Assembly: GCA_041487875.1 (NCBI GenBank)
Contig: JBGPOE010000002.1
Span: 8,121 to 72,120 of the forward strand
Source of the DNA: Gemmatimonadota bacterium
GTDB taxonomy: Bacteria; Gemmatimonadota; Gemmatimonadetes; Gemmatimonadales; GWC2-71-9
DNA: 64,000 nt
Direction: 5' to 3'
In this document: one piece after another, positions 2,630 through 61,770 of the stretch
How positions within the stretch are numbered: the stretch's first letter is position 1
Layout: every line of letters starts with the position of its first letter
Notes under the pieces: model-generated
Seen by the model: the letters and a program-made list of their open reading frames with translations, nothing else
What the model was told of the DNA's origin: nothing
The model's database searches: none
Translations under genes and position numbers: made by a program

Positions 2630-3865
<1,236 letters not shown>

Positions 3866-5117: not shown

Positions 5118-6353
5118 GTGACCCCCCTGTTCGAAGGCGTCGGCATCGCGCTGGGCTCGCTCCGGGCCAACAAGGGGCGCGCCGCGCTCACGATCCTGGG
5201 TGTGGCGATCGGCGTGATGGTGGTGATGATCATCGCCTCGATGATCAGCGGCATCAACCGCAGCGTGTCGAACACCTTCGAGCAGATCGCGCCGCGCACT
5301 TTCCTGGTGTGGCGGTTCTTCCAGGCCGGCGTGAACATCTCCGACGGGTCGGACGAGAACAGCCCGTGGCGTCGCAACCCGGCGATCAGCGAAGCGGAGG
5401 CCGATCGCATCGCCCAGCTCCCCAGCGTGCGCTATGTCACGCGCCGCGATGAGAGCTCGGCGCAGGTGGAATTTGGCGACCGCAAGTTGGAGTCGGTGAG
5501 CATCTCCGGCCTGAGCTCGCAGTGGATCGAGGTGAACGGTGGTGACATCTACCCCGGCCGCTCGTTCACGCATATGGAGGATCTGGCCAACAGTCGCGTT
5601 GTCGTGATCAGCCGGAAACTCGAGTCGCAGCTGTTCGAGGGTCGCGACCCGATCGGCCAAACGGTGAAGATCGCCGGCGTGCATTTCGAGGTAATCGGCG
5701 TCTACACGCCGCCCGCTAGCTTGTTCAGCGGCGCCAGCCCGCCGTTCGCCGGGATGCCCCACGGCGCGTTCGTGAAATACATCCCCTTCTTCAAGGGGTG
5801 GATGCGGCTGGCGGTCGCGCCGGACGTCAATATCCCGCAGCAGCAGGCCATCGACGAGGTGACGGCCACGCTGCGCTCGATGCGCAATCTCAAGCCCGCG
5901 CAGGAGAACACGTTCTCAATCGTGACGCAAGACAAGCTGCTGGACAGCTGGCACCAGGTCACCGGCGTGTTCTTTCTGGTCATGATCGCGCTCTCCTCGA
6001 TCGGCTTGATGGTGGGCGGCGTGGGCGTGGTGGCGATCATGATGATCTCGGTCACGGAGCGGACCCGGGAGATCGGCGTGCGCAAGGCGCTGGGCGCCAC
6101 GCGGCGCGAGATCCTGTGGCAGTTCCTGGTCGAGGCGGCGACGCTCACGTTGGTGGGCGGGGCCATCGGCATGCTGGTGGGGGGCCTCGTGGCCTGGCTG
6201 CTCTCGGCGGTTACGCCCATCCCCGCCTACGTCCCCGTGTGGTCCGTGGTGGTGGCACTCGCGGCGTCTGCGCTTACGGGAATTGGGTTCGGACTGTACC
6301 CGGCCAATCGCGCGGCCAAGCTCGATCCGGTGGACGCGCTGCGCTACGAATAA
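5118..6353 (+). CDS. MacB/FtsX-type ABC permease, type B copy 2
   Basis: The GTG at 5118 gives an N-terminus VTPLFEGVGIALGSLRANKGRAALTILGV that matches B copy 1. The listed ORF start at 5043 would overlap the preceding gene. Ends LDPVDALRYE. Confidence 0.85.
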   Translation: MTPLFEGVGIALGSLRANKGRAALTILGVAIGVMVVMIIASMISGINRSVSNTFEQIAPRTFLVWRFFQAGVNISDGSDENSPWRRNPAISEAEADRIAQLPSVRYVTRRDESSAQVEFGDRKLESVSISGLSSQWIEVNGGDIYPGRSFTHMEDLANSRVVVISRKLESQLFEGRDPIGQTVKIAGVHFEVIGVYTPPASLFSGASPPFAGMPHGAFVKYIPFFKGWMRLAVAPDVNIPQQQAIDEVTATLRSMRNLKPAQENTFSIVTQDKLLDSWHQVTGVFFLVMIALSSIGLMVGGVGVVAIMMISVTERTREIGVRKALGATRREILWQFLVEAATLTLVGGAIGMLVGGLVAWLLSAVTPIPAYVPVWSVVVALAASALTGIGFGLYPANRAAKLDPVDALRYE

Positions 6354-6370
6354 CGCTGCGCTACGAATAA
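6337..6370 (+). repeat. Perfect 17-bp tandem duplication (CGCTGCGCTACGAATAA x2) including the stop codon of the permease at 5118..6353
   Basis: Read directly: 6337..6353 is identical to 6354..6370. Confidence 0.9.
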
Positions 6371-6376
6371 CAGCGA

Positions 6377-6449
6377 CGGAATGACGGAATGACGGATGGG
6401 GGATGCGGAGACGCGTGCCGCATCCCGTTTCCGTCTTACCGTCCTTCCG
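6377..6449 (+). repeat. Long imperfect hairpin built from 7-8-nt words (GACGGAAT/GGGGGAT)
   Basis: The arms at 6377..6408 and 6418..6449 are complementary at about 26 of 32 positions with a 9-nt loop, followed by the U-containing CTCCGTTTAGCTTTCG. This is the only long gap inside the permease array. Confidence 0.7.
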
Positions 6450-10866: not shown

Positions 10867-11960
10867 GAAGCGAACGCGGAACGCGGAATGGGGAATGCGG
10901 AACAGGTGCCCGCGTGCTGGTGGCGATGTCCGGCGGAGTGGACTCGTCCGTGGCTGCCGCCCTGCTAGTCGAACAGGGCTATGACGTCATCGGCGCGACG
11001 CTGAAGCTGTTCTGCTACGGCGACGACGTGCCGGATCGCCCCTGCTGCTCGCTCGATTCGATCACCGACGCGAAGCTGGTGGCGCACAAGCTGGGCATTC
11101 CCCACTACGTGCTCAATCTGGAAGACCGCTTCGGCCACGACGTGATCGACGACTTCGTGCGGGAATACGCCCGGGGCCGCACGCCGATCCCCTGCGTCCG
11201 CTGCAATGCGTTCACCAAGTTCCGAGACCTCCTGTCCCACGCCGACGCGCTGGACTGCGACTACCTGGCTACGGGCCATTACGTGACGGCGCGGGACGGC
11301 GCGCTCTTCCGCGGGCGCGATCCCCAAAAGGATCAGTCGTATTTCCTCTGGGGCATCAACCGCGCCGTGGTACAGCGGATGCTCGCCCCCGTGGGCGGAC
11401 TCACCAAGCGCGAGACGCGGGCCGTGGCCCGCCAGCTCGGCCTCGTGACCGCCGACAAGGTCGAATCGGTGGAGATCTGCTTCGTCCCCGACGACGACTA
11501 CGTGGCGGTACTCGAACGGCGGCTGCCGGCCGACGCCCCGGCGCTCACACCGGGCCCGCTCGTCACCACGGGTGGCGATGTGGTGGGCGAGCACGCCGGG
11601 TTCGCGCGCTACACCATCGGCCAGCGGCGCGGGTTGCCGGGCGGGTTTGCCGAGCCGATGTACGTGGTCGCGATCCGGCCCGAGACGCGCGAGGTGGTGG
11701 TGGGTCGGGGCGAGGAGTTGTTCGGACACACCGTGTCCCTCGACGAGGTCAACTGGCTCACGGAGCCGCTCGCGGCCGGCGATCCCGTATGGGTGCAGTG
11801 CCGCTACCGCGCCCGCGCCGTGCCCGGCACGGTAGATGCAATCGGCAACGGACGGCTCGCGCTCCGGCTGGCGGAGTCGGTCCGGGCGATCACGCCCGGT
11901 CAGTCGGGCGTCCTGTACGACGACAGCGAGCGCCTGCTCGGAGGCGGCCTCATCGCCTGA
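10863..11960 (+). CDS. mnmA: tRNA 2-thiouridine(34) synthase MnmA
   Basis: PP-loop [18 protein letters not shown] and a typical MnmA body. The ATG at 10863 overlaps the nifS-like stop (ATGA). The alternative GTG at 10914 gives the canonical short N-terminus and would leave the heptamer array 10870..10903 intergenic. Confidence 0.85.
10870..10903 (+). repeat. Tandem heptamer array GCGAAC GCGGAAC GCGGAAT GGGGAAT GCGGAAC
   Basis: Read directly. It lies between the nifS-like stop and the PP-loop region of mnmA. Confidence 0.85.
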
Positions 11961-20771: not shown

Positions 20772-20773
20772 GA

Positions 20774-20840
20774 GCCGTCAGCGGTCAGCCATCAGCCGTC
20801 AGCAAGCCAGAACGCTGATGGCTGACGGCTGAACGCTGAT
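20774..20840 (+). terminator. Heptamer-array hairpin (GCCGTCA GCGGTCA GCCATCA GCCGTCA, loop, complementary array) followed by a T-rich tract
   Basis: 20778..20803 pairs with 20814..20839 at about 23 of 26 positions. The downstream sequence is TTGCTTATCTTTG. It starts 3 nt after the stop of 20343..20771. Confidence 0.6.
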
Positions 20841-22679: not shown

Positions 22680-23754
22680 GGCCCTTCTTCTCGGCGAACG
22701 CCTTGAGGGCGTTCGCTTCCTCGGGCGACAGCTTCTCCGGGATGTCCACGCGCACTTCCACCAGCTGATCGCCGCGCCGGCCGTTCTTCTCGATGCCCTG
22801 CCCCGCGATGCGGAATTTCTTGCCGGGCTGCGTGCCGGGGGGAATGCGCAACACCACGCGCCGGCCGTCCAGCGTCCGCACCTTGATCTTGGTGCCGAGC
22901 GCCGCCTGCACGACGTTGACGGGTACGACGCACACGACGTCCAGTCCCTCGCGCCGGAAGAACGTATCGGGCTCCACGCGGAACTCGACCTGCAGGTCGC
23001 CCCTGCCCTTGGCGCCCTGGCCCCGGAGCCGCACCTTGCTGCCGTCCTCGGTGCCGGGCGGCACCGTGATCATGAGCTGCTTCTCGACGCGCACTTCGCC
23101 CGAGCCCTGGCACGTGCCGCAGCGCTGCGACGGGATGCGGCCCTTGCCGCGGCACATCGGACAGGGCCGGTTGACGGCGAAGCCCCCCTGACCGAACGAA
23201 ACGGTGCCCCGGCCCTTGCACTCGGGACAGGTGGAGATGGTGGCGCCCGGCGCAGCGCCGCTGCCGCTGCACGTGGGACACACCGCGGCCATCGCCAGCG
23301 TCACGGGTAGCTTGCCGCCGAGTGCCGCCACGCGGAACGGCACCGCGAGCGTGGTCTCCACGGTGTCGTCGGGCTCGTCCCGTCCGGTCCCCTTGCGCCC
23401 GAAGATGGAGGAGAAGAGATCGCCCAGCCCCCCGAACGAGCCGAGGTCGGAGAACTCGAAGTCGGTCGAGAAGTTGTCCGACGCGGCGCCGCCGCCGGGT
23501 CCGCGCGCGGTGCGTCCCGCTCCGGCGTAGGCGCCATAGCGGCGCAGGGTGTCGTACTTCTTGCGCTTGTCGGGATCGCTCAACGCGTCGTGCGCTTCGT
23601 TGATCTCCTTAAAGCGCTCCGCGGCCTGCGGGTTGCCCGGATTGCGGTCGGGGTGATGCACCTTGGCCAGCCGGCGGAACGCCTTCTTGATCTCGTCCGT
23701 CGTGGCCGTCTCGGAGACACCGAGGGTCTGGTAGTAGTCCTTTTGCGGCGCCAT
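22669..23754 (-). CDS. dnaJ: Molecular chaperone DnaJ
   Basis: J-domain DYYQTLGV...HHPDRN, a G-rich region, and four CxxCxGxG zinc-finger repeats. Confidence 0.92.
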   Translation of the reverse strand: MAPQKDYYQTLGVSETATTDEIKKAFRRLAKVHHPDRNPGNPQAAERFKEINEAHDALSDPDKRKKYDTLRRYGAYAGAGRTARGPGGGAASDNFSTDFEFSDLGSFGGLGDLFSSIFGRKGTGRDEPDDTVETTLAVPFRVAALGGKLPVTLAMAAVCPTCSGSGAAPGATISTCPECKGRGTVSFGQGGFAVNRPCPMCRGKGRIPSQRCGTCQGSGEVRVEKQLMITVPPGTEDGSKVRLRGQGAKGRGDLQVEFRVEPDTFFRREGLDVVCVVPVNVVQAALGTKIKVRTLDGRRVVLRIPPGTQPGKKFRIAGQGIEKNGRRGDQLVEVRVDIPEKLSPEEANALKAFAEKKGLKY

Positions 23755-23770
23755 CAGCCGTCAGCCGTCA
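23749..23770. repeat. Heptamer array GCCATCA GCCGTCA GCCGTCA spanning the grpE stop and dnaJ start
   Basis: Read directly. On the minus strand it reads CTGACGGCTGACGGCTGATGGC, encoding the grpE C-terminus LTADG, the TGA stop and the dnaJ ATG. Confidence 0.85.
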
Positions 23771-24359
23771 GAGGTTCGTCGCGCGGACGGTCGTCCGGCG
23801 CCGGCGAGTCGCCACCGTGCCACGCGAGCACGATGACGCGCGCCGGCCGGATCAGCGTCTCGCCCAGCTTGTAGCCCGGCTGCAGCACGGCCGCGACCGT
23901 GTGATCCTGCGCCGCCGACGGCGCGGGCTGCACCGTCACCGCCTCGTGCACGTGAGGATCGAACAGAACGCCCGGCTGATCGAGCCGCGTCACGCCCATC
24001 GCTTCGAGCTGCTTCCAGATCTTGCGCTCGACCATGTCCACGCCGTCGTGGATCGTCTTGGCGTCGGTCTGCGCCGGATCGACGTGGGCGAAGCGCGCCA
24101 GGTCGTCGAGCCCATCCACCAGACGGGCCAGCAGGTCGGCCTGCGCCCGCCTCCAGGCTTCGGTCCGCTCGCGCGCGCTGCGCTTCTTGAAGTTGTCGAA
24201 CTCGGCCGCCAAGCGGAGATACTTGTCCTTCGCGTCGGCGAGCTCGGTCTCGAGCGGCGACGCGGCAGTTTCCGGCACCGCCTCCCCGCCGCTGGGAGGC
24301 TCGGTCGCCGGGTGGGCGCCGGCGGTGTGGCCGTGGTGGCGGTGTTTCTTCTCGGTCAT
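23754..24359 (-). CDS. grpE: Nucleotide exchange factor GrpE
   Basis: KDKYLRLAAEFDNFKKRSARE motif. The stop overlaps the dnaJ ATG by 1 nt. Confidence 0.9.
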   Translation of the reverse strand: MTEKKHRHHGHTAGAHPATEPPSGGEAVPETAASPLETELADAKDKYLRLAAEFDNFKKRSARERTEAWRRAQADLLARLVDGLDDLARFAHVDPAQTDAKTIHDGVDMVERKIWKQLEAMGVTRLDQPGVLFDPHVHEAVTVQPAPSAAQDHTVAAVLQPGYKLGETLIRPARVIVLAWHGGDSPAPDDRPRDEPLTADG

Positions 24360-27152: not shown

Positions 27153-27827
27153 TCAACTCAACGTTTTGAGCACCAGCTTGCTGCATACCTTGAGCGTGTC
27201 GAACACACCGTCGCCCCGCACCGCCACCGCCTCGAGGTACGGCGCGCGCCCCACCCATTGGCCGCCCACGTTCTCCACCAGGTTCTCACCAGGGTGCGTG
27301 GGGTCGGGGGTCACCTTCTGCTGGGGGCCGTCGTCGATCGGCCACCCGGGATTGAGCGCGGCCTGGAGGTCTTTGATCGGCGCGGCGTTGGGCAGGTCAC
27401 GCTTGTTGTACTGGATCACGAACGGGATCTTGGTCAGATCGTACCCGTACTCCGCCATGTTGTCGTACAGGTTCTGCATCGACTCGACGTTCGCTTCCAT
27501 GCGCTCAAGCTGGCTGTCGGCGACGAACACGATGCCGTCCACGCCCTTCAAGATCAGCTTGCGGCTGGCGTTGTAGTACACCTGGCCCGGCACCGTGTAG
27601 AGGTGGAAGCGAGTCTTGAAACCGCGGATGGTGCCCAGATCCACCGGCAGGAAGTCGAAGAACAGCGTGCGCTCGGTCTCGGTGGCGAGCGAGATCATTT
27701 TGCCGCGGGTCTGGGGCGAGACTTTGGCGTAGACGTGCTCCAGGTTCGTGGTCTTGCCGCCCAGACCGGGACCGTAGTACACGAGCTTGCAGTTGATCTC
27801 GCGGGACGCGTAGTTGATCATCGACAT
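27153..27827 (-). CDS. mglA: Ras-like small GTPase MglA (with an extra segment near the C-terminus)
   Basis: [71 protein letters not shown] and GVFDTLK closely follow my recollection of Myxococcus MglA. Confidence 0.88.
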
Positions 27828-27839
27828 GGACGCGTCCCC

Positions 27840-28328
27840 TTAGCCGAAGAGCTTGTCAATTTCGTCTTCCGCCCCTTCGAGCAGCCCCTTTTGCTGCGCC
27901 GAGCCGCCCGTCCCCACGCGGTTGAACATCTCCTCGAACACCTTGTTGAGACTCTCCACCACGCTGCGCGCCTTGAGCTTCACCAGGCCGAGGGTGGCGC
28001 GCTGATCGAACAGCACCACCAGGATGACGCGCTTCGCCACGTCGGCGAGATACATCGATTCCTTCTCGCCCTGGTGCACGAGCGAGGCGAACTCCGGCTC
28101 GCCGATCATCTTGGCGAGCTGGTCGTTGGCGCTGAAATCGGCGGCGGTGAGTGAGGCGAAGGCGGTGGGATCGAAGTGCGGTGTCTCGCCGACCGTGGCG
28201 ACGAGCTGTCCCGTGCGATCCACGAGCAGCGCGCAGCGCGCGTTCGACTCGCGCAGATACGCCTGGAGATGCGTCTGAATCTGCTTGAAGTCGTTTTCGC
28301 TGAACGACCAGCTGGCCGCACCCGTCAT
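27840..28328 (-). CDS. mglB: Roadblock/LC7-domain protein MglB (MglA GAP)
   Basis: Lies directly upstream of mglA on the same strand. Roadblock-like core (ARCALLVDRTGQLVATVGE...ILVVLFDQRATLGLVK). Confidence 0.8.
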   Translation of the reverse strand: MTGAASWSFSENDFKQIQTHLQAYLRESNARCALLVDRTGQLVATVGETPHFDPTAFASLTAADFSANDQLAKMIGEPEFASLVHQGEKESMYLADVAKRVILVVLFDQRATLGLVKLKARSVVESLNKVFEEMFNRVGTGGSAQQKGLLEGAEDEIDKLFG

Positions 28329-29305: not shown

Positions 29306-30964
29306 CTACTCCAGCAGCTCGAGATCGAGCGCGTCGGCCGCGGCATTCAACGTCGGATCCTTCTGCCGCAGCGACTTGAGCCGCTCCGCGTTGGCGCTCT
29401 GCTCGGTGAGCCGCTCGCCGCGCGCCGCCGCCGTGCCGCCGCTCCCCGCCGCCCGCTCCCCGCCGACCGCCACCCGCACGCGCAGCGGCTCCGTGACGTA
29501 GCGCCCCATGACCTGCGCCAGCGCATCGCGCTTGCGGTCGACGCCTTCGGCGTGATGCGCGTCGGTGAGCGAGAGCGTCACGACGCCGCCCGCCACGGCC
29601 GACACGACCGCCTCGGCCACGAGACTCGCGATCATCGGGTTCTCGGCGCGCACATCGGCGACGATGCGGGGCCACAGCGCGCGGAGGCGGTCGAGCGAAG
29701 CGGGACCGCGCTCCGTGGGGACAGGGGACGGGGGAATGGGGACAGGCGCTGCCGCGGATGGAGCGACGTCACGCAATTGCGGCGGCGCAGGCGGCGCCGC
29801 AGCCGGACCCTTCCCCTGTCCCCTGTCCCCTTTCCCCAACGCCGTGAGCACTTCCGCCAGCTCGACCGTCCGATCCATCATCGCCCAACGCAGCAGCAAC
29901 AGCTCGACCGCGAGGCGCGTATTGCCGCCGCGGCGGATCTGCACCTCCATTTCCCCCAGCACCGCGAGCAGCCGGACGACGTCGGGCGGCGGCAGCCGGC
30001 CGGCAGCGCCCCGTACCACCTGCGCCAACCCCTCCGTGAGCCCCTCGGGCTGGCCGCCCAGCCCCGCGATCAACAGCGCGCGCAGGGTCTCCCCCGCCCC
30101 ATCCACGAACTCGCCGAGGTCCGCGCCCGCCTCGAGCAGGCGCTCGACCAGGGGAAATACGCCGGCGGCATCGCGCTCGGCCACGAGGCGCAGCATCTCA
30201 CCGTACAGCTCGTCGGGAATGAGACCGAGGACCGCGCGCACCCGGGCGGCGGTGATCGGACCTTCGCCGAAGGACAGCACCTGATCCAACACCGACAGGG
30301 CGTCGCGCATGCCGCCGTCCGCGCTCTTGGCGATGAGGTGCAGCGCGTCGTCCGCGGCGGCGATGCCCTCCGCGCGCACCACGGCCTGGAGCCGCTCCGC
30401 GATGGCGTGCGGCCCGATGCGGCGGAAATCGAACCGCTGCAGCCGCGACAACACGGGCGCCGCGGTCTGGGCGATCTTGTGCGGCTCGGTGGTCGCGAAC
30501 ACGAAGACGACTTTGGGCGGCGGCTCCTCCAGGATCTTGAGCAGCGCGTTCCACGCCTCCCGCGTGAGCATATGCGCCTCGTCCACGATGTAGACCTTGT
30601 GGTGGCCTTCGGTGCTCGCCGCGTACATCGCGCGCTCGCGCAGATCGCGCGCGTCGTCCACACCGCGGTTGGACGCGGCGTCGAGCTCCACCACGTCGAG
30701 CCCCGCCGATCCATTCCACGTGCGCAGGCAGGCGTCGCACTCGCCGCATGGCTCGCCCGCCACGGCGCCTTTGCGCTCGCAGTTCAAGGCCATCGCGAGG
30801 ATGCGCGCCGCCGTCGTCTTGCCGACGCCCCGGGGGCCCGCGAACAAATAGCCGTGCGCGGCACGCCCCTGCGCCACGGCGCCCCGTAACGCCGCGGCCA
30901 CATGGTCCTGAGCGATCAAGTCGGCGAAGCGTTTGGGGCGGTACTTACGGGCGAGGGCGATCAT
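29306..30964 (-). CDS. dnaX: DNA polymerase III subunit gamma/tau
   Basis: MIALARKYRPKRFADLIAQ, Walker A GPRGVGKTT, zinc module CGECDAC and the SRC region. It contains a low-complexity insert encoded by 29718..29837. Confidence 0.92.
   Translation of the reverse strand: MIALARKYRPKRFADLIAQDHVAAALRGAVAQGRAAHGYLFAGPRGVGKTTAARILAMALNCERKGAVAGEPCGECDACLRTWNGSAGLDVVELDAASNRGVDDARDLRERAMYAASTEGHHKVYIVDEAHMLTREAWNALLKILEEPPPKVVFVFATTEPHKIAQTAAPVLSRLQRFDFRRIGPHAIAERLQAVVRAEGIAAADDALHLIAKSADGGMRDALSVLDQVLSFGEGPITAARVRAVLGLIPDELYGEMLRLVAERDAAGVFPLVERLLEAGADLGEFVDGAGETLRALLIAGLGGQPEGLTEGLAQVVRGAAGRLPPPDVVRLLAVLGEMEVQIRRGGNTRLAVELLLLRWAMMDRTVELAEVLTALGKGDRGQGKGPAAAPPAPPQLRDVAPSAAAPVPIPPSPVPTERGPASLDRLRALWPRIVADVRAENPMIASLVAEAVVSAVAGGVVTLSLTDAHHAEGVDRKRDALAQVMGRYVTEPLRVRVAVGGERAAGSGGTAAARGERLTEQSANAERLKSLRQKDPTLNAAADALDLELLE
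29718..29837. repeat. Intragenic inverted pair of heptamer arrays inside dnaX
   Basis: GGGGACA GGGGACG GGGGAAT GGGGACA at 29718..29747 and the C-rich complement at 29808..29837 agree at about 24 of 30 positions. The total length is 120 nt. Confidence 0.8.
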
Positions 30965-30984
30965 GAGCGGAATCTAACGTAAAA

Positions 30985-31083
30985 TGCCCCAGGCACCCCG
31001 TAACGAGTCCCGACATCGCTTAGCGCTGCTCCCTGCGGGGGCCTGACGCGATTCGCGCGCGGAAAACCTACGGACCTGGGGCA
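30985..31083 (-). ncRNA. ffs: Signal recognition particle RNA (small bacterial 4.5S type)
   Basis: The minus-strand RNA starts UGCCCCAGG and ends CCUGGGGCA, a 9-bp closing helix. It contains GUCAGGCCCCCGCAGGGAGCAGC, which resembles the conserved domain IV GUCAGGUCCGGAAGGAAGCAGC. It lies immediately upstream of dnaX, a classic position. Confidence 0.7.
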
Positions 31084-43143: not shown

Positions 43144-43719
43144 ATGCGCGTAATCGGCCCGATCCTGCGCCTGCAAGTTCAGCGCTCCACCCTCAAGACC
43201 GGCGAGAAGCCCAACCGCACCTACGACCCGCGCCCGCTCCTGGCGGTGCCGGCGCTCGCCGTGCACCCCGATGGCGCCTGCGGCGCGATGGATGGTGGCT
43301 GGGTGGTGGACGTGCACCATCGCGCGCATCCCGAGACCAAGAACGAAGACGGCCTGCACGGGCTGTCGGTGGGCTTCACGTCGCATTATGCCGCGATGCA
43401 ACAGCGCTTCGGCCCGCACGTGACCATGGGTGTCGCGGGCGAGAACATCATCGTCGACACCGATCGTCACGTCACCTGGGACGACGTGGCGCTGGGCTGC
43501 ACCGTGCTGGACGCGGCGGGGCAGGAGGTGGTGCGCTTGCGGGTGCTGCAGCCCGCGCATCCGTGCCGGCCGTTCACGGGCTGGGCCCTGGGCGAGCGCG
43601 TCGAAGCGCAGGTGCTCAAGGAGCATCTGCAATTCCTGGACGACGGAATGCGCGGGTACTATGCGGTGGCGGAGGGGACAGGCGTGCTGCGGGCTGGGAT
43701 GATCCTAGCCGCCATATAG
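43144..43719 (+). CDS. MOSC-domain-like protein
   Basis: 191 aa. GENIIVD and the conserved Cys context QPAHPCRPF resemble MOSC beta-barrel proteins. The long upstream in-frame extension from 41068 is rejected. Confidence 0.5.
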   Translation: MRVIGPILRLQVQRSTLKTGEKPNRTYDPRPLLAVPALAVHPDGACGAMDGGWVVDVHHRAHPETKNEDGLHGLSVGFTSHYAAMQQRFGPHVTMGVAGENIIVDTDRHVTWDDVALGCTVLDAAGQEVVRLRVLQPAHPCRPFTGWALGERVEAQVLKEHLQFLDDGMRGYYAVAEGTGVLRAGMILAAI

Positions 43720-43747
43720 CCGTCAGCGGTCAGCCGTCAGCCGTCAG
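43719..43747 (+). repeat. Heptamer array GCCGTCA GCGGTCA GCCGTCA GCCGTCA
   Basis: 27 of 28 nt are identical to 20774..20801. It overlaps the TAG stop of the MOSC gene. Confidence 0.85.
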
Positions 43748-43749
43748 AA

Positions 43750-43865
43750 CAGTTCCCAGACGCCAAGTTACCAGTGGTTCCAAGTGAAAAGTGGCCAGCT
43801 GCTCTCGAAAGCAGACTGGCCACTGCGTTACTTACGACCACTGGTAACTTGGCGTCTGGGAACTG
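43750..43865. repeat. 116-nt rod-like palindromic element: perfect 29-bp outer inverted repeat enclosing a 13-bp inner hairpin
   Basis: 43750..43778 is the exact reverse complement of 43837..43865. The inner pairing joins 43790..43802 with 43811..43824. It lies between convergent genes. Confidence 0.85.
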
Positions 43866-58983: not shown

Positions 58984-60371
58984 AGGCGCAGTTCAAGTTC
59001 CTCTCGGGCGCACGCGCCGGTGAAGTCGAAGCCTTCGGCAAGGCGTACATCGGCGTCGGACGGCACCCACTCTCCGACGTCCGCTTCGACGCCGAGCGCG
59101 ATCTCGACGTCTCGTCGCGGCACGCGTCAATCACGCGCGGGGCCGGGGGGTTCGTGCTCAAGGACTTGGGCAGCAAGAACGGCACGTTCGTCAACGGCAA
59201 GCGGGTCGCGGCCGACGTCCTGCTGCGGGACGGCGACATCATCGCCTTCGGCGACAAGGGCCCGGCACTCGAGTTTCACGTAGTCGACGCGGGCGAGGCG
59301 GCGCCTTCCGAGGCCGGCGCCGCCGATCTCGCCCGGCGCTCCTCGGCGCCGCGAGAATCGTTCGCCGCGAGCGCCGCCCCCGCCCCCGCTCCCGTCGCCC
59401 CGCCCCGTCGCTCCAGCACCGCCGTCCGGTTCGCGCAGGAAGTCGCCCACCTCCGCCGCACCACGAAGCTGCTGTTCGGCGCCTTGGTGCTGGCGTTCGC
59501 GCTGTTCGGATTCCTGCAATGGAAGGGCGGACGCGACCGCGCGCACGACCGCGCGCAGTTCCAGAACCAGCTGCAATCGCTCAACGACGCGTTGACGCAG
59601 TCGCGGCAGGAGGTTTCGCGGCTGGATCGCGAGCTCGTCGCGGCGAGCCGCGTGGGGGACGATTCGACCCTGACGCGCCTTCGCGCCGAGCTCGACGCCG
59701 CCGAGCACCGCTATCGCAGCATCGTCGGGGCGGCGGCGGTGGATTATCGCGGCATCAGCCAGAAGAATCAGGACGCCGTGGCGCTGGTGCTGGTGGATTT
59801 CGGTGCCAGCGAGGTATTCAGCGGCACCGCGTTCGCGGTGGACTCGCAGGGGACCTTGGTCACCAACAAGCACGTCCTGGTGGGCGAAGAGGCCGACCGC
59901 ACGCCGCAGCGCATCGCGGTGAAATTCTCTGGCTCCAAGCAGTGGTTCCCAGGCCGCATGGTGGGCGTCTCCAGCAAGTGGGACCTGGGCGTCGTCAAGG
60001 TCGACATCAAGGGGGGCGTGCCGCGCGTCGCCGGGATCGCCCGGGAGGCTCACGCCGTGCAGCGCGGTGATCCCGTCGCCATCATCGGCTTCCCGCTCGG
60101 CGTCGACTTACCGATGGAAGGCGGCCAGGGGGTGAACGCCGTCGCCGATCCCACCCTCACCGCGGGTACGGTGAGCAAAGTGCTCGACAGTCTCGTGCAG
60201 GTGGACGGATACGGCGCGCCCGGCTCTTCGGGCAGCCCGATTTTCGACCGCGACGGCCGCGTCGTGGCGGTCTTGTACGGCGGCAACCGGGAGTCCGGCG
60301 GCAAGATCATCTTCTCGATTCCGGCCTACTTCGTGGTGGATTACCTCAAGTCGCTCAATCTGCTGAAATAG
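58980..60371 (+). CDS. FHA domain, TM, coiled coil and trypsin-like (S1) serine protease fusion
   Basis: GTGA-coupled to the upstream gene. FHA core (GVGRHPLSDVRF...SSRHASI...DLGSKNGTFVNG). TM LLFGALVLAFALFGFL. Protease triad contexts TNKHV, WDLGVVKV and GAPGSSGSPIF. Confidence 0.82.
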   Translation: MKAQFKFLSGARAGEVEAFGKAYIGVGRHPLSDVRFDAERDLDVSSRHASITRGAGGFVLKDLGSKNGTFVNGKRVAADVLLRDGDIIAFGDKGPALEFHVVDAGEAAPSEAGAADLARRSSAPRESFAASAAPAPAPVAPPRRSSTAVRFAQEVAHLRRTTKLLFGALVLAFALFGFLQWKGGRDRAHDRAQFQNQLQSLNDALTQSRQEVSRLDRELVAASRVGDDSTLTRLRAELDAAEHRYRSIVGAAAVDYRGISQKNQDAVALVLVDFGASEVFSGTAFAVDSQGTLVTNKHVLVGEEADRTPQRIAVKFSGSKQWFPGRMVGVSSKWDLGVVKVDIKGGVPRVAGIAREAHAVQRGDPVAIIGFPLGVDLPMEGGQGVNAVADPTLTAGTVSKVLDSLVQVDGYGAPGSSGSPIFDRDGRVVAVLYGGNRESGGKIIFSIPAYFVVDYLKSLNLLK

Positions 60372-61770
60372 CGCGCGCCGCCGCGCGCTGCATGACTCCG
60401 TCTCCTCCCCACGCACACAACACCGGTACGCGCCCCGGGATCTGTGCCGCGAGCCGCGGATGGCCGAACAGCACCACCAGCGCCGCACCGGGCAACCGCC
60501 GCCGCAGCGCGGCGCGTGAACGGGCGCTCAAGTCGGCGTGGCCTTTCCAGGAGAGGGGATTGGCGAAGACGGCGATGATGCGTGTGCCGTTCTCTGTTAT
60601 CCGTCGCCCGCGACTGTGCAGCTCCCCGGCAAATACGTCGCGCGGGCCGACGGTGTAGGGTCCGCCTGCGTCGTCGTCCACCACCGCGACGCGCAGCGCG
60701 GCGCCGAGTTTCGGTTGCTCGCCGCGCACCCACCGTAGCGTCCGTTGCGCCAGCTGATCGGCGAAGAGGGCGTTGGCGGCCAAGTCGACGTCCCTGTCCC
60801 CTGTCCCCCTTCCCCATTCCCCGATTGTCCGCTCGTAACGCGCCAAAGCCTCGTCCGCCCTGGCGGATGAGATCTCCTTCCCGACGGCCGCGTCGAGCGC
60901 AGCGATCACGGCGGCGAAATCTTCGGGATAGAGCAACCCGTCGCAGCCCGCGGCCACCGCCGCGACCGTGGCCGGCGCCTCCGCTTGCGCGGCGGTGGCG
61001 CCACCCATGATCAGTGCGTCCGTCACCACGAACCCGGAGAAGTTGAGCGGGTCGCGCAGGTATCCGAGAATTGTTGGTGAGAACGCCGCGGCCCGGCCGC
61101 TCGAGTCCCAGCCGGGATAGGCGACGTAGGCGGCCATCACGCTGCCCACGCCCGCGCCGATCGCGGATTCGAACGGCCCCAAATCCGTGGCGGCGAGCGC
61201 GGCGAACGGCGTGGCGACGCGCGGCACGGTGGCGTGGGAGTCCTGGATGGTGCGACCGTGCCCCGGATAGTGCTTGGCACAGGCGAGCACGCCGTGCTCC
61301 TGGCAGCCGCGGATCCACACGGCCGCCTGCTCCCCCACCCGCTGTGGGTCCGCGCCGAACGACCGCGTCTGGATGATGGGATTCTCGGGCTCCACGTCGA
61401 GGTCGCATACCGGCGCGAACGCCCAGTTGAGTCCGACGGAGAGCGCTTCGCCCGCCGTGATGAGCGCCGCGGCGTGCGTGGCGTCGAGGTCGTCCAAGGC
61501 ACCGAGGGCCGCGGGTGGCGGCAGCTCGGTGAGTCCGCGGACCTGCTGGCCGGCGCCGCGCTCCAGGTCCGCGCCGATCAGCAAGGGCCGGCCCGCCTGC
61601 GCCCGCAGGTCGGCGGTGAGTGCCGCCACGGCGTGGCGCGTCCCGCCGAACGCAATGAATCCACCGGCGCCCGCCGCGAGCGCGCGGTCGATCTTCTGCC
61701 GCTCGTGCGCAAACGATCCCCGGCGCCACCGCAGCGCTGGGAAGACGAGCCGTGCCAGCGACGTGGTCAC
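60355..61770 (-). CDS. nagZ: Glycoside hydrolase family 3 beta-N-acetylhexosaminidase (NagZ-like) with a C-terminal extension
   Basis: IGADLERGAGQQ, AKHYPGHGRT, FSGFVVTDAL. At 471 aa it is longer than typical NagZ. Confidence 0.8.
   Translation of the reverse strand: MTTSLARLVFPALRWRRGSFAHERQKIDRALAAGAGGFIAFGGTRHAVAALTADLRAQAGRPLLIGADLERGAGQQVRGLTELPPPAALGALDDLDATHAAALITAGEALSVGLNWAFAPVCDLDVEPENPIIQTRSFGADPQRVGEQAAVWIRGCQEHGVLACAKHYPGHGRTIQDSHATVPRVATPFAALAATDLGPFESAIGAGVGSVMAAYVAYPGWDSSGRAAAFSPTILGYLRDPLNFSGFVVTDALIMGGATAAQAEAPATVAAVAAGCDGLLYPEDFAAVIAALDAAVGKEISSARADEALARYERTIGEWGRGTGDRDVDLAANALFADQLAQRTLRWVRGEQPKLGAALRVAVVDDDAGGPYTVGPRDVFAGELHSRGRRITENGTRIIAVFANPLSWKGHADLSARSRAALRRRLPGAALVVLFGHPRLAAQIPGRVPVLCAWGGDGVMQRAAARAISAD
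60791..60825. repeat. Heptamer array inside nagZ (minus-strand reading GGGGAAT GGGGAAG GGGGACA GGGGACA)
   Basis: Read directly. It encodes GEWGRGTGDRD in the NagZ C-terminal extension. Confidence 0.8.

Follow-up and report, generated by a model that had tools for sequence, protein, structure and literature searches.

A translated heptamer-repeat hairpin in the DnaX linker of a Gemmatimonadota bacterium: probably a tolerated copy of a DNA repeat class of Gemmatimonadales

How does a long and nearly regular hairpin come to lie in frame within an essential replication gene, and does it serve the protein, the mRNA or neither? This question is raised by dnaX, which encodes the tau subunit of DNA polymerase III, in a 64-kb stretch of contig JBGPOE010000002.1 from a Gemmatimonadota bacterium (hereafter the window; G+C content of 70%). 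In the linker of this gene, an original prediction had pointed to G-rich heptamers facing an inverted, C-rich counterpart, with Rickettsia palindromic elements as a precedent. The best explanation that we can offer is that this block is one copy of a DNA repeat class spread across Gemmatimonadales. We consider it probable that it is a DNA-level element tolerated in the disordered tau linker and shaped by slippage, arm-to-arm correction and recombination. The block is remodelled at the DNA level, and it is not a recoding or frameshift signal.

On the plus strand, positions 29717-29746 read GGGGACA GGGGACG GGGGAAT GGGGACA GG, and a reverse-complement array, CCCTTCC CCTGTCC CCTGTCC CCTTTCC CC, lies at 29808-29837. 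The block is made of two inverted arrays of about four GGGGAMN heptamers each. Tandem Repeats Finder (TRF) reported a period of 7 with 4.3-4.4 copies at both places, and the best inverted repeat pairs 29716-29757 with 29797-29838, with 42-nt arms that are 76% complementary. The predicted heptamer arrays in inverted orientation inside the dnaX linker are real, but the first one starts at 29717 and not at 29718. The 24 complementary positions out of 30 are indeed found in the 29717 register, but only 17/30 in the 29718 register, and with the array corrected to 29717-29746 the two arrays are separated by 61 nt instead of 60. The proposed length of exactly 40 codons has no special meaning either: the quoted peptide corresponds to 41 codons (29714-29836) and the spacer to 61 nt. 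Translation on the minus strand, after the clamp-loader core, was borne out by Pfam (PF13177, PF22608, PF12169 and PF20964), which places domains I-III at residues 19-364 and DnaX_C at residues 418-509. The hairpin block occupies residues 377-417, in the linker joining domain III to the tau-specific C-terminal domain. Folding the mRNA also gave the expected hairpin: as RNA, 29700-29855 reaches a minimum free energy (MFE) of -92.5 kcal/mol (z = -3.98), with 0/200 dinucleotide shuffles as good, and as DNA the same segment gives z = -3.14.

The repeats stand far above what the composition of the window would give. Indeed, GGGGANNGGGGA is found 9 times in the window for 0.18 expected, a count that 0/100 shuffles reached, and all 9 occurrences fall in dnaX or at 60797-60822. 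When codons were shuffled within each half of the linker, none of the 40 shuffles folded as well as the observed sequence (z = -4.6). As the sharpest control, we kept the peptide fixed and redrew its codons from the window's own usage (300 draws). The MFE was matched in 26 of these synonymous recodings and the inverted-repeat score in 2, while the period-7 autocorrelation was matched in none, for either arm. As the period-7 signal is not reached with the peptide fixed, the periodicity belongs to the DNA and not to the Gly/Pro-rich protein; it cannot come from the DnaX protein sequence. The block uses rare GGG, GGA, AGG, AAA and CCT codons, which places the probability of its observed codons, given the protein, about 12 log10 units under the typical value. 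The complementarity of the arms exceeds both the codon-shuffle and the synonymous-recoding nulls, and is thus better than expected for low-complexity Gly/Pro-coding DNA.

We then took the linker from 160 orthologous loci (designated by L numbers), most of which are metagenome assemblies, and assessed the significance of the inverted repeat by codon-within-half shuffles. DnaX of the window is 72-79% identical to its counterparts from uncultured Gemmatimonadales in species-representative genomes and 87-89% identical to those of two soil-metagenome contigs. A hairpin is present at the equivalent dnaX site in 85/161 Gemmatimonadales orthologs; a significant linker inverted repeat was found in 70 of the 105 orthologs at least 66% identical to the window DnaX, and in 15 of the 56 more distant ones. 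Close relatives mostly show a G-rich tandem array and then its reverse complement, beginning a few codons beyond the final helix of domain III. The significant hairpins include 80 distinct ones. In 62 of these 80 the two arms share a period of 7 (36 hairpins) or of 8 (26 hairpins), and in 75 the G-rich arm precedes the other on the sense strand. The site is conserved and the unit is not. Period-7 units are GGGGACA in the window, GGGGACT in L001, GGGGAAG in L009, L010 and L017, GGGGACG in L012 and L016, and GGGAAGC or GGGATGC in L004, L006 and L085. Period-8 units are GTCGGACA in L003 and L014, GGGCGGAC in L002, GGCGGATC in L023, GGCGGACA in L026 and L071, and GCGGGGAA in L057 and L079, and a unit of about 11 nt with period 11 is found in L099 and L119. 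The orthologs thus also carry short-period arrays, and the block is not conserved as protein without such periodicity. Some orthologs, e.g. L013 and L156, have no array at all. The idea of a block that is either present or absent between orthologs did not hold on alignment: the orthologous site is occupied in most relatives and varies by sequence replacement.

The two arms change together between lineages. In a 19-sequence alignment compared with 500 shuffles, paired cells amount to 83.9% versus 66.1% in shuffles, cells changed on both sides to 45 versus 14.4, and the covariation score to 0.434 versus 0.159, with 0/500 shuffles reaching any of these values; controls with slid partners gave scores of 0.04-0.18. 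The loop follows another rule. Its motif, (V/Q)LRD(A/V)AP, is conserved in many orthologs while the Arg codon varies (CGT, CGC, CGG or AGG), which argues that the loop motif is constrained as protein; it may be a binding motif. This motif (29759-29779 on the minus strand in the window) is not present in a clade whose linker ends with QKLEPTL.

The dnaX arrays have relatives elsewhere. In the 64-kb window we found seven such loci belonging to three unit families, each family being present at two sites or more; two of the loci are in frame, and the other five are found at the ends of genes or between them (Table 1). The related arrays named in the original prediction, in nagZ, at the start of mnmA and in an intergenic hairpin, are among them, with adjusted boundaries. 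The one in the GH3/NagZ-like open reading frame (ORF) encodes GEWGRGTGDRD, has no inverted partner and is 96% identical over 25 nt to a dnaX arm. The array at the mnmA junction is either an N-terminal extension of MnmA or an mnmA leader. The two intergenic hairpins fold stably as RNA, with -48.2 kcal/mol (z = -5.39) at 6375-6449 and -51.9 kcal/mol (z = -7.05) at 20773-20839. We surveyed arrays with TRF in 1.04 Mb, i.e. the window and the 160 related loci, and sought an inverted partner within 160 nt. Period-7 and period-8 arrays are over-represented in this related sequence and half of them have a nearby inverted partner: 126 of 231 arrays for period 7 and 55 of 110 for period 8, against 0-25 in controls. 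There were only 59 arrays of period 6 (2 with a partner), 57 of period 9 (3 with a partner) and about 5 for each of periods 10-12. The median copy number is 4.1 for the 231 period-7 arrays and 3.9 for the 110 period-8 arrays, and the median array length is 29-31 nt irrespective of the period, which corresponds to about four units.

The repeats also turn over fast between close genomes. In 4/7 genome pairs that are near-identical outside the block, the blocks are unrelated. L131 and L011 are identical over the 4.1 kb that precede the block and the 1.3 kb that follow it, and show 83 differences within the 185 nt of the block. In 14 close pairs, 22/25 hot-spot windows overlap a period-7/8 array, compared with 55/1026 of the other windows; the substitution hot spots lying on arrays include the dnaX block and the hairpin between the signal recognition particle (SRP) RNA gene, ffs, and dnaX. 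In the latter, all units of both arms switch between GGAATGC and GGAACGC in close genomes, and these unit-wide switches look like concerted evolution within the hairpin. Arm divergence is bimodal: some species pairs keep near-identical arms, and most pairs that are only 3-13% different in flanking dnaX have completely different arms. In an all-pairs analysis, the arms were more often significantly more diverged than the flanks. We had entertained the view that arms evolve more slowly than synonymous sites; true of pairs picked by eye, it failed this unbiased analysis and was withdrawn.

LRD stays in frame in both alleles even though whole-block differences extend into the loop, so that recombination with a different dnaX allele offers the simplest interpretation. 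Horizontal transfer was considered for similar blocks in diverged backgrounds and is not needed, such blocks diverging at about the all-site rate of their flanks. An inversion of the loop by assembly artefact was rejected too: the L131 and L011 loops are dissimilar on reverse complementing, and both encode LRD in frame.

Altogether, we propose the following for the repeat class and its dnaX copy. A member of the class would consist of some four units of 7 or 8 nt in tandem (about 30 nt), about half of the members being paired with a reverse-complement array at most 160 nt away; such a pair could therefore fold as a long hairpin from either strand. The dnaX copy would fill the disordered linker that leads from domain III of the clamp loader to the C-terminal domain specific to tau. 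As its units have no stop codon in either orientation and the frame is kept, the block would simply be translated, the 5′ arm into a Gly/charged stretch, the loop into QLRDVAP and the 3′ arm into a Pro-rich stretch. Slippage would homogenise the units within an array, templated correction would act between the two arms, and recombination between strains would replace the whole block. These mutational mechanisms are likely at work and the peptide is likely mostly a passenger, although its Gly-rich start beside domain III may be useful to the DnaX protein. That the Gly-rich arm takes part in making gamma, or that the mRNA hairpin has a role of its own, is possible but unsupported.

Several points weigh against this explanation. 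First, the G-rich arm comes first in 75/80 hairpins and starts a few codons from the end of domain III, which looks selected and not neutral. In some species pairs the arms are also far more alike than the flanks (0/63 arm differences between L002 and L091 at a 4-fold-site divergence of 0.36), and a sequence-specific constraint is possible there. No donor of the swapped blocks was found among the 160 loci, the nearest block identity being 0.62-0.83, and the mechanisms were not directly observed. Our sample is centred on dnaX neighbourhoods, and genome-wide statements rest on 64 kb and flanks. Finally, metagenome assemblies can merge strains and hold local errors (an 82-nt gap in L011, for instance), and an identical background means the same population and not a proven clone.

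Table 1. Position of the dnaX hairpin, of its gene and of related arrays and hairpins in the window.
Feature	Position	Strand	Remarks
dnaX (DNA polymerase III tau), 552 codons	29306-30964	-	ORF list; Pfam; full-length orthologs in Gemmatimonadales
5′ arm on the sense (mRNA) strand, GGGGAAA GGGGACA GGGGACA GGGGAAG GG	29808-29838	-	encodes GKGDRGQGKG, Gly-rich; abuts domain III
Spacer (loop), 61 nt	29747-29807	-	encodes PAAAPPAPPQLRDVAPSAAA; QLRDVAP codons at 29759-29779
3′ arm on the sense strand, CC TGTCCCC ATTCCCC CGTCCCC TGTCCCC	29717-29746	-	encodes PVPIPPSPVP, Pro-rich
Full predicted stem-loop, with extra pairs beyond the heptamer arrays	29700-29855	-	folded as RNA and as DNA
SRP RNA gene	30983-31082		just upstream of dnaX; Rfam
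Single array, GGGGAAT GGGGAAG GGGGACA GGGGACA GGG (sense)	60792-60822	-	in frame in GH3/NagZ-like ORF 60355-61770
Array GGAACGC GGAACGC GGAATGG GGAATGC GGAAC	10872-10903	+	ATGA junction of a cysteine-desulfurase-like ORF and mnmA
Intergenic hairpin, arms of tandem GACGGAAT / GGGGGAT units	6375-6449	+	22 nt past a stop codon
Intergenic hairpin, (AGCCGTC)x4.4, 10-nt loop, inverted array	20773-20839	+	begins 1 nt past a TGA stop
Single (GACGGCT)x3 array	23750-23771	-	spans the stop/start junction of two minus-strand genes
Single intergenic (AGCCGTC)x4.3 array	43718-43747	+	unit as at 20773 and 23750

Around these features we made some further observations. A putative ybaB, recR, mglB and mglA follow downstream of dnaX (all four named from their translations only), the mglA and mglB homologues being at 27153-28328, directly downstream of recR. 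The order dnaX - putative ybaB - recR - mglB is common to the related loci that we read. In many relatives, a tandem-heptamer hairpin with AATGCGG / GAACGCG units separates the 3′ end of the SRP RNA gene from the start of dnaX (2919-2996 in L001; about 2880-3000 in L004, L005, L010 and L026). The corresponding spacer of the window (30965-30982, 18 nt) has no hairpin and retains only GATTCCGC. A perfect 17-nt tandem duplication (CGCTGCGCTACGAATAA x2.1) at 6337-6371 holds the stop codon of the upstream gene and immediately precedes the octamer hairpin that starts at 6375. A strong conventional stem-loop at 43760-43800 on the minus strand, GUGGCCAGUCUGCUUUCGAGAGCAGCUGGCCAC and then UUUU, adjoins the AGCCGTC array at 43718-43747; it resembles an ordinary terminator and is separate from the array.

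A second inverted heptamer pair was observed inside dnaX of one subclade (L020, L093, L094, L144 and about 15 other loci). Its upstream array, (CCGCTCC)x3, encodes RSPLPAPD within domain III, and its downstream array, (GGGAGCG)x3, encodes GAGSGER in the C-terminal tail. These arrays are about 540 nt apart and bracket the tau-specific region, with a complementarity of 18-20/21, where shuffles average 14 and reach 18 at most. The counterparts in the window (about 29975-30001 and 29410-29481) are degenerate, with 16/21, which is within the shuffle range. Compared with near-identical contigs, L011 has its 82-nt gap in mglB (about 5656-5738, in alignment columns), and L151 has a 33-nt gap and a 24-nt insertion inside the CCGCTCC array, its indel sites being about 2897-2930 and 3031-3054. 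Either errors of assembly or genuine indels at repeat sites may account for these gaps and this insertion.

Could the protein itself be the selected object? A Gly-rich tract would make an unfoldase such as ClpXP lose its grip, so that tau would be partially degraded from its C-terminus into a gamma-like product, and the hairpin would follow as a side effect from the GGN codons of Gly and the CCN codons of Pro. In the window DnaX, GKGDRGQGKG is such a tract, directly C-terminal to domain III. Across 150 orthologs, the Gly fraction of the first 12 residues after domain III is 0.28 versus 0.08 for the whole protein; it is 0.33 with a hairpin and 0.22 without, and only 0.05-0.09 further along the linker. 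The Gly-rich stretch is thus kept even without the hairpin. It recalls DnaX processing in Caulobacter where, according to Vass and Chien 2013 as cited in PMC6677533, ClpXP is blocked by a Gly-rich sequence that separates domains III and IV of DnaX, gamma being the product. A comparable role may explain why the G-rich arm almost always comes first (75/80 hairpins). Against this, units such as GTCGGACA give only modest Gly, e.g. KGVGQSDSLTVG; neither a periodicity of 7 or 8 nt nor a recourse to rare codons can result from selection on the protein, which also leaves identical hairpins in intergenic DNA unexplained. We consider this reading unlikely; it is compatible with a DNA-level repeat.

One may go further and suppose that 7/8-mer hairpin cassettes are actively rewritten and exchanged between strains, and that the dnaX copy has been put to use, as a Gly-rich stop for proteolytic gamma or as a hairpin setting the tau:gamma ratio. 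Breaks provoked by the hairpin and repaired from other alleles or copies would be a possible route. We regard this as quite unlikely; if it were true, swapping from strain to strain would tune replisome composition.

The mRNA hairpin might instead be functional, by stalling ribosomes or recruiting a double-strand RNase at the domain III/IV boundary, or by tuning the downstream ybaB and recR; it would then set the tau:gamma ratio through frameshifting, drop-off or cleavage. Its fold is very stable (-92.5 kcal/mol), its arms covary, its position equals in protein terms that of the E. coli dnaX frameshift region, and its G-runs allow single-tRNA slips. However, no slippery X XXY YYZ site in the zero frame was found in the window (TTG GGG AAA GGG GAC), nor a conserved one in the orthologs, and none of the 153 orthologs considered pointed to a conserved -1 or +1 stop after the arm. 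The first stop lies 20 codons after the arm in the -1 frame and 65 codons in the +1 frame of the window. In orthologs the medians are 51 codons (10th-90th percentile 8-213) and 53 codons (13-132), respectively, and distances range from 2 to >200 codons; a TGA within the LRD codons is present only if Arg is CGT. A programmed frameshift was rejected on these grounds. At the window block there is no A-run, and no terminator-like T-run after it; Rfam gave no match to the block and found only the upstream SRP RNA, and the hairpin is missing from many orthologs. Furthermore, mismatches in the arms are symmetric, with 55 G:U versus 67 A:C beside 2434 Watson-Crick pairs. As G:U is not in excess over A:C, nothing indicates selection on the mRNA fold, and we rejected selection for the sense RNA. 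This strand symmetry of the complementarity is as expected from a DNA-level process, unlike selection on sense RNA. An effect of the hairpin on DnaX translation, which had been suggested, thus finds no support in slippery sites, stops or G:U bias, and a functional mRNA hairpin appears distinctly improbable.

A mobile sequence inserted in frame into dnaX, after the manner of Rickettsia palindromic elements, has little left in its favour. Those elements reportedly occur as dispersed copies with a consensus of about 100-150 nt and show presence/absence of the insertion type. The likeness suggested for the dnaX block holds in part: it is palindromic, it can form a hairpin and it is translated in frame where the protein is tolerant, a related array lies in a second gene (the GH3/NagZ-like ORF), relatives occur elsewhere in the genome, and orthologs without any array exist (L013, L156). 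It fails on the other points. By blastn against the window, no further full-length copy of the block of about 120 nt or of its loop was found, the sole hits being the block and a 25-nt array at 60792-60816. Only short arrays recur, the loop is unique and gene-specific, the position is identical and orthologous across the order, and no clean presence/absence boundaries are seen, the variation occurring by replacement within an always-present linker. An insertion of the Rickettsia type is largely refuted and, in our view, very improbable.

Equally small is the chance that G-quadruplexes (G4) account for the arrays, with the four G-runs of the sense strand and the four of the opposite strand (in the other arm) acting as such. 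The block of the window does contain the canonical G4 motif GGGG-N3-GGGG-N3-GGGG-N3-GGGG, and related heptamers form G4 in vitro and also prefer four units (PMC4692102). Yet a sense-strand motif is present in only 45/80 significant hairpins, and the complementary arm would compete with G4 formation. The GTCGGACA, AGCCGTC and CAATGAT units also come in about fours, and such a length, kept by arrays that are not G-rich, speaks against G4 as a general explanation; with the motif missing from nearly half of the 80 hairpins, we rejected it as a general cause.

Finally, chance complementarity of a low-complexity linker, Gly-rich and then Pro-rich, is scarcely credible: GGN and CCN codons are intrinsically complementary and 26/300 synonymous recodings reach the MFE, but only 2/300 reach the inverted-repeat score, 0/300 the period-7 signal and 0/40 codon-within-half shuffles an equal fold, and orthologs repeat the architecture with other units whose arms covary, so that codon shuffles, synonymous recodings and arm covariation refute it.

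The preferred reading, a tolerated DNA-level repeat, would be a modest result if the element is only a passenger. The block shows that an essential replication gene can keep a complete repeat hairpin within its reading frame throughout an order. In our sample, the hypervariable islands that set apart otherwise identical genomes are mainly such repeat hairpins, which bears on strain-level metagenomics and on the evolution of such repeats. Moreover, the location at the tau/gamma boundary offers a testable link to how, and whether, bacteria beyond model species make gamma.

Among known systems, REP/BIME palindromes are short hairpins that are dispersed, lie at gene junctions and differ from strain to strain; they share one consensus and are not internally tandem-periodic. 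The hairpins described here are likewise short, dispersed, located at gene junctions and strain-variable, but are built from internally tandem-periodic arrays of several unit families. The devices that yield gamma from dnaX offer another comparison. In E. coli, Thermus and Caulobacter, gamma arises through events at the domain III/IV boundary (PMC5009743), namely a -1 frameshift, transcriptional slippage and partial proteolysis by ClpXP, respectively, and in Caulobacter a Gly-rich tract at this boundary stops ClpXP (Vass and Chien 2013, as cited in PMC6677533). The block of the window has the same boundary position, a stable stem-loop like the -1 frameshift cassette of E. coli dnaX and a Gly-rich tract after domain III like that of partial ClpXP proteolysis in Caulobacter. 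It differs from these devices by the lack of a slippery heptamer, of an A-run and of any out-of-frame stop that is conserved.

A closer precedent than Rickettsia palindromic elements is the class of G-rich heptameric repeats of Xanthomonas and Nostoc, including its inverted pairs. The commonest long simple repeats of prokaryotes are heptanucleotide repeats, for which slippage by the polymerase was proposed (Mrazek 2007, in the summary given by PMC4679880), and imperfect palindromes can be converted by template switching (PMC4060949). Rehm et al. 2015 studied two such repeats, GGGAATC in Xanthomonas and GGGGA(C/T)T (STRR type) in Nostoc, in which four units are preferred and the arrays are mostly between co-oriented genes, few copies being intragenic; 70-75 convergent array pairs per Xanthomonas genome are able to form stem-loops, the context of 83% of the repeats is conserved from one Xanthomonas species to a second one, and stability is increased nearby (PMC4692102). 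The repeats of Gemmatimonadales have the same tandem 7-nt G-rich units (the GGGGACT unit of L001 is that of Nostoc), about four units per array and frequent inverted pairs able to form stem-loops, and in the window they are dispersed on both strands, with five of the seven loci at the ends of genes or between them and two inside genes; a preference for junctions of co-oriented genes may also be shared. They differ by their host, by many unit families that include 8-mers, 11-mers and non-G-rich units, by a complete in-frame hairpin kept in the linker of an essential gene across an order, and by a strong strain-level turnover where 83% of the Xanthomonas repeats are conserved in context (PMC4692102). 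The heptameric class is thereby extended to a little-studied soil phylum, with 8- and 11-nt and non-G-rich units, and the dnaX element is best described as a member of this known class of heptameric arrays and inverted pairs, in a new lineage and in an unusual setting.

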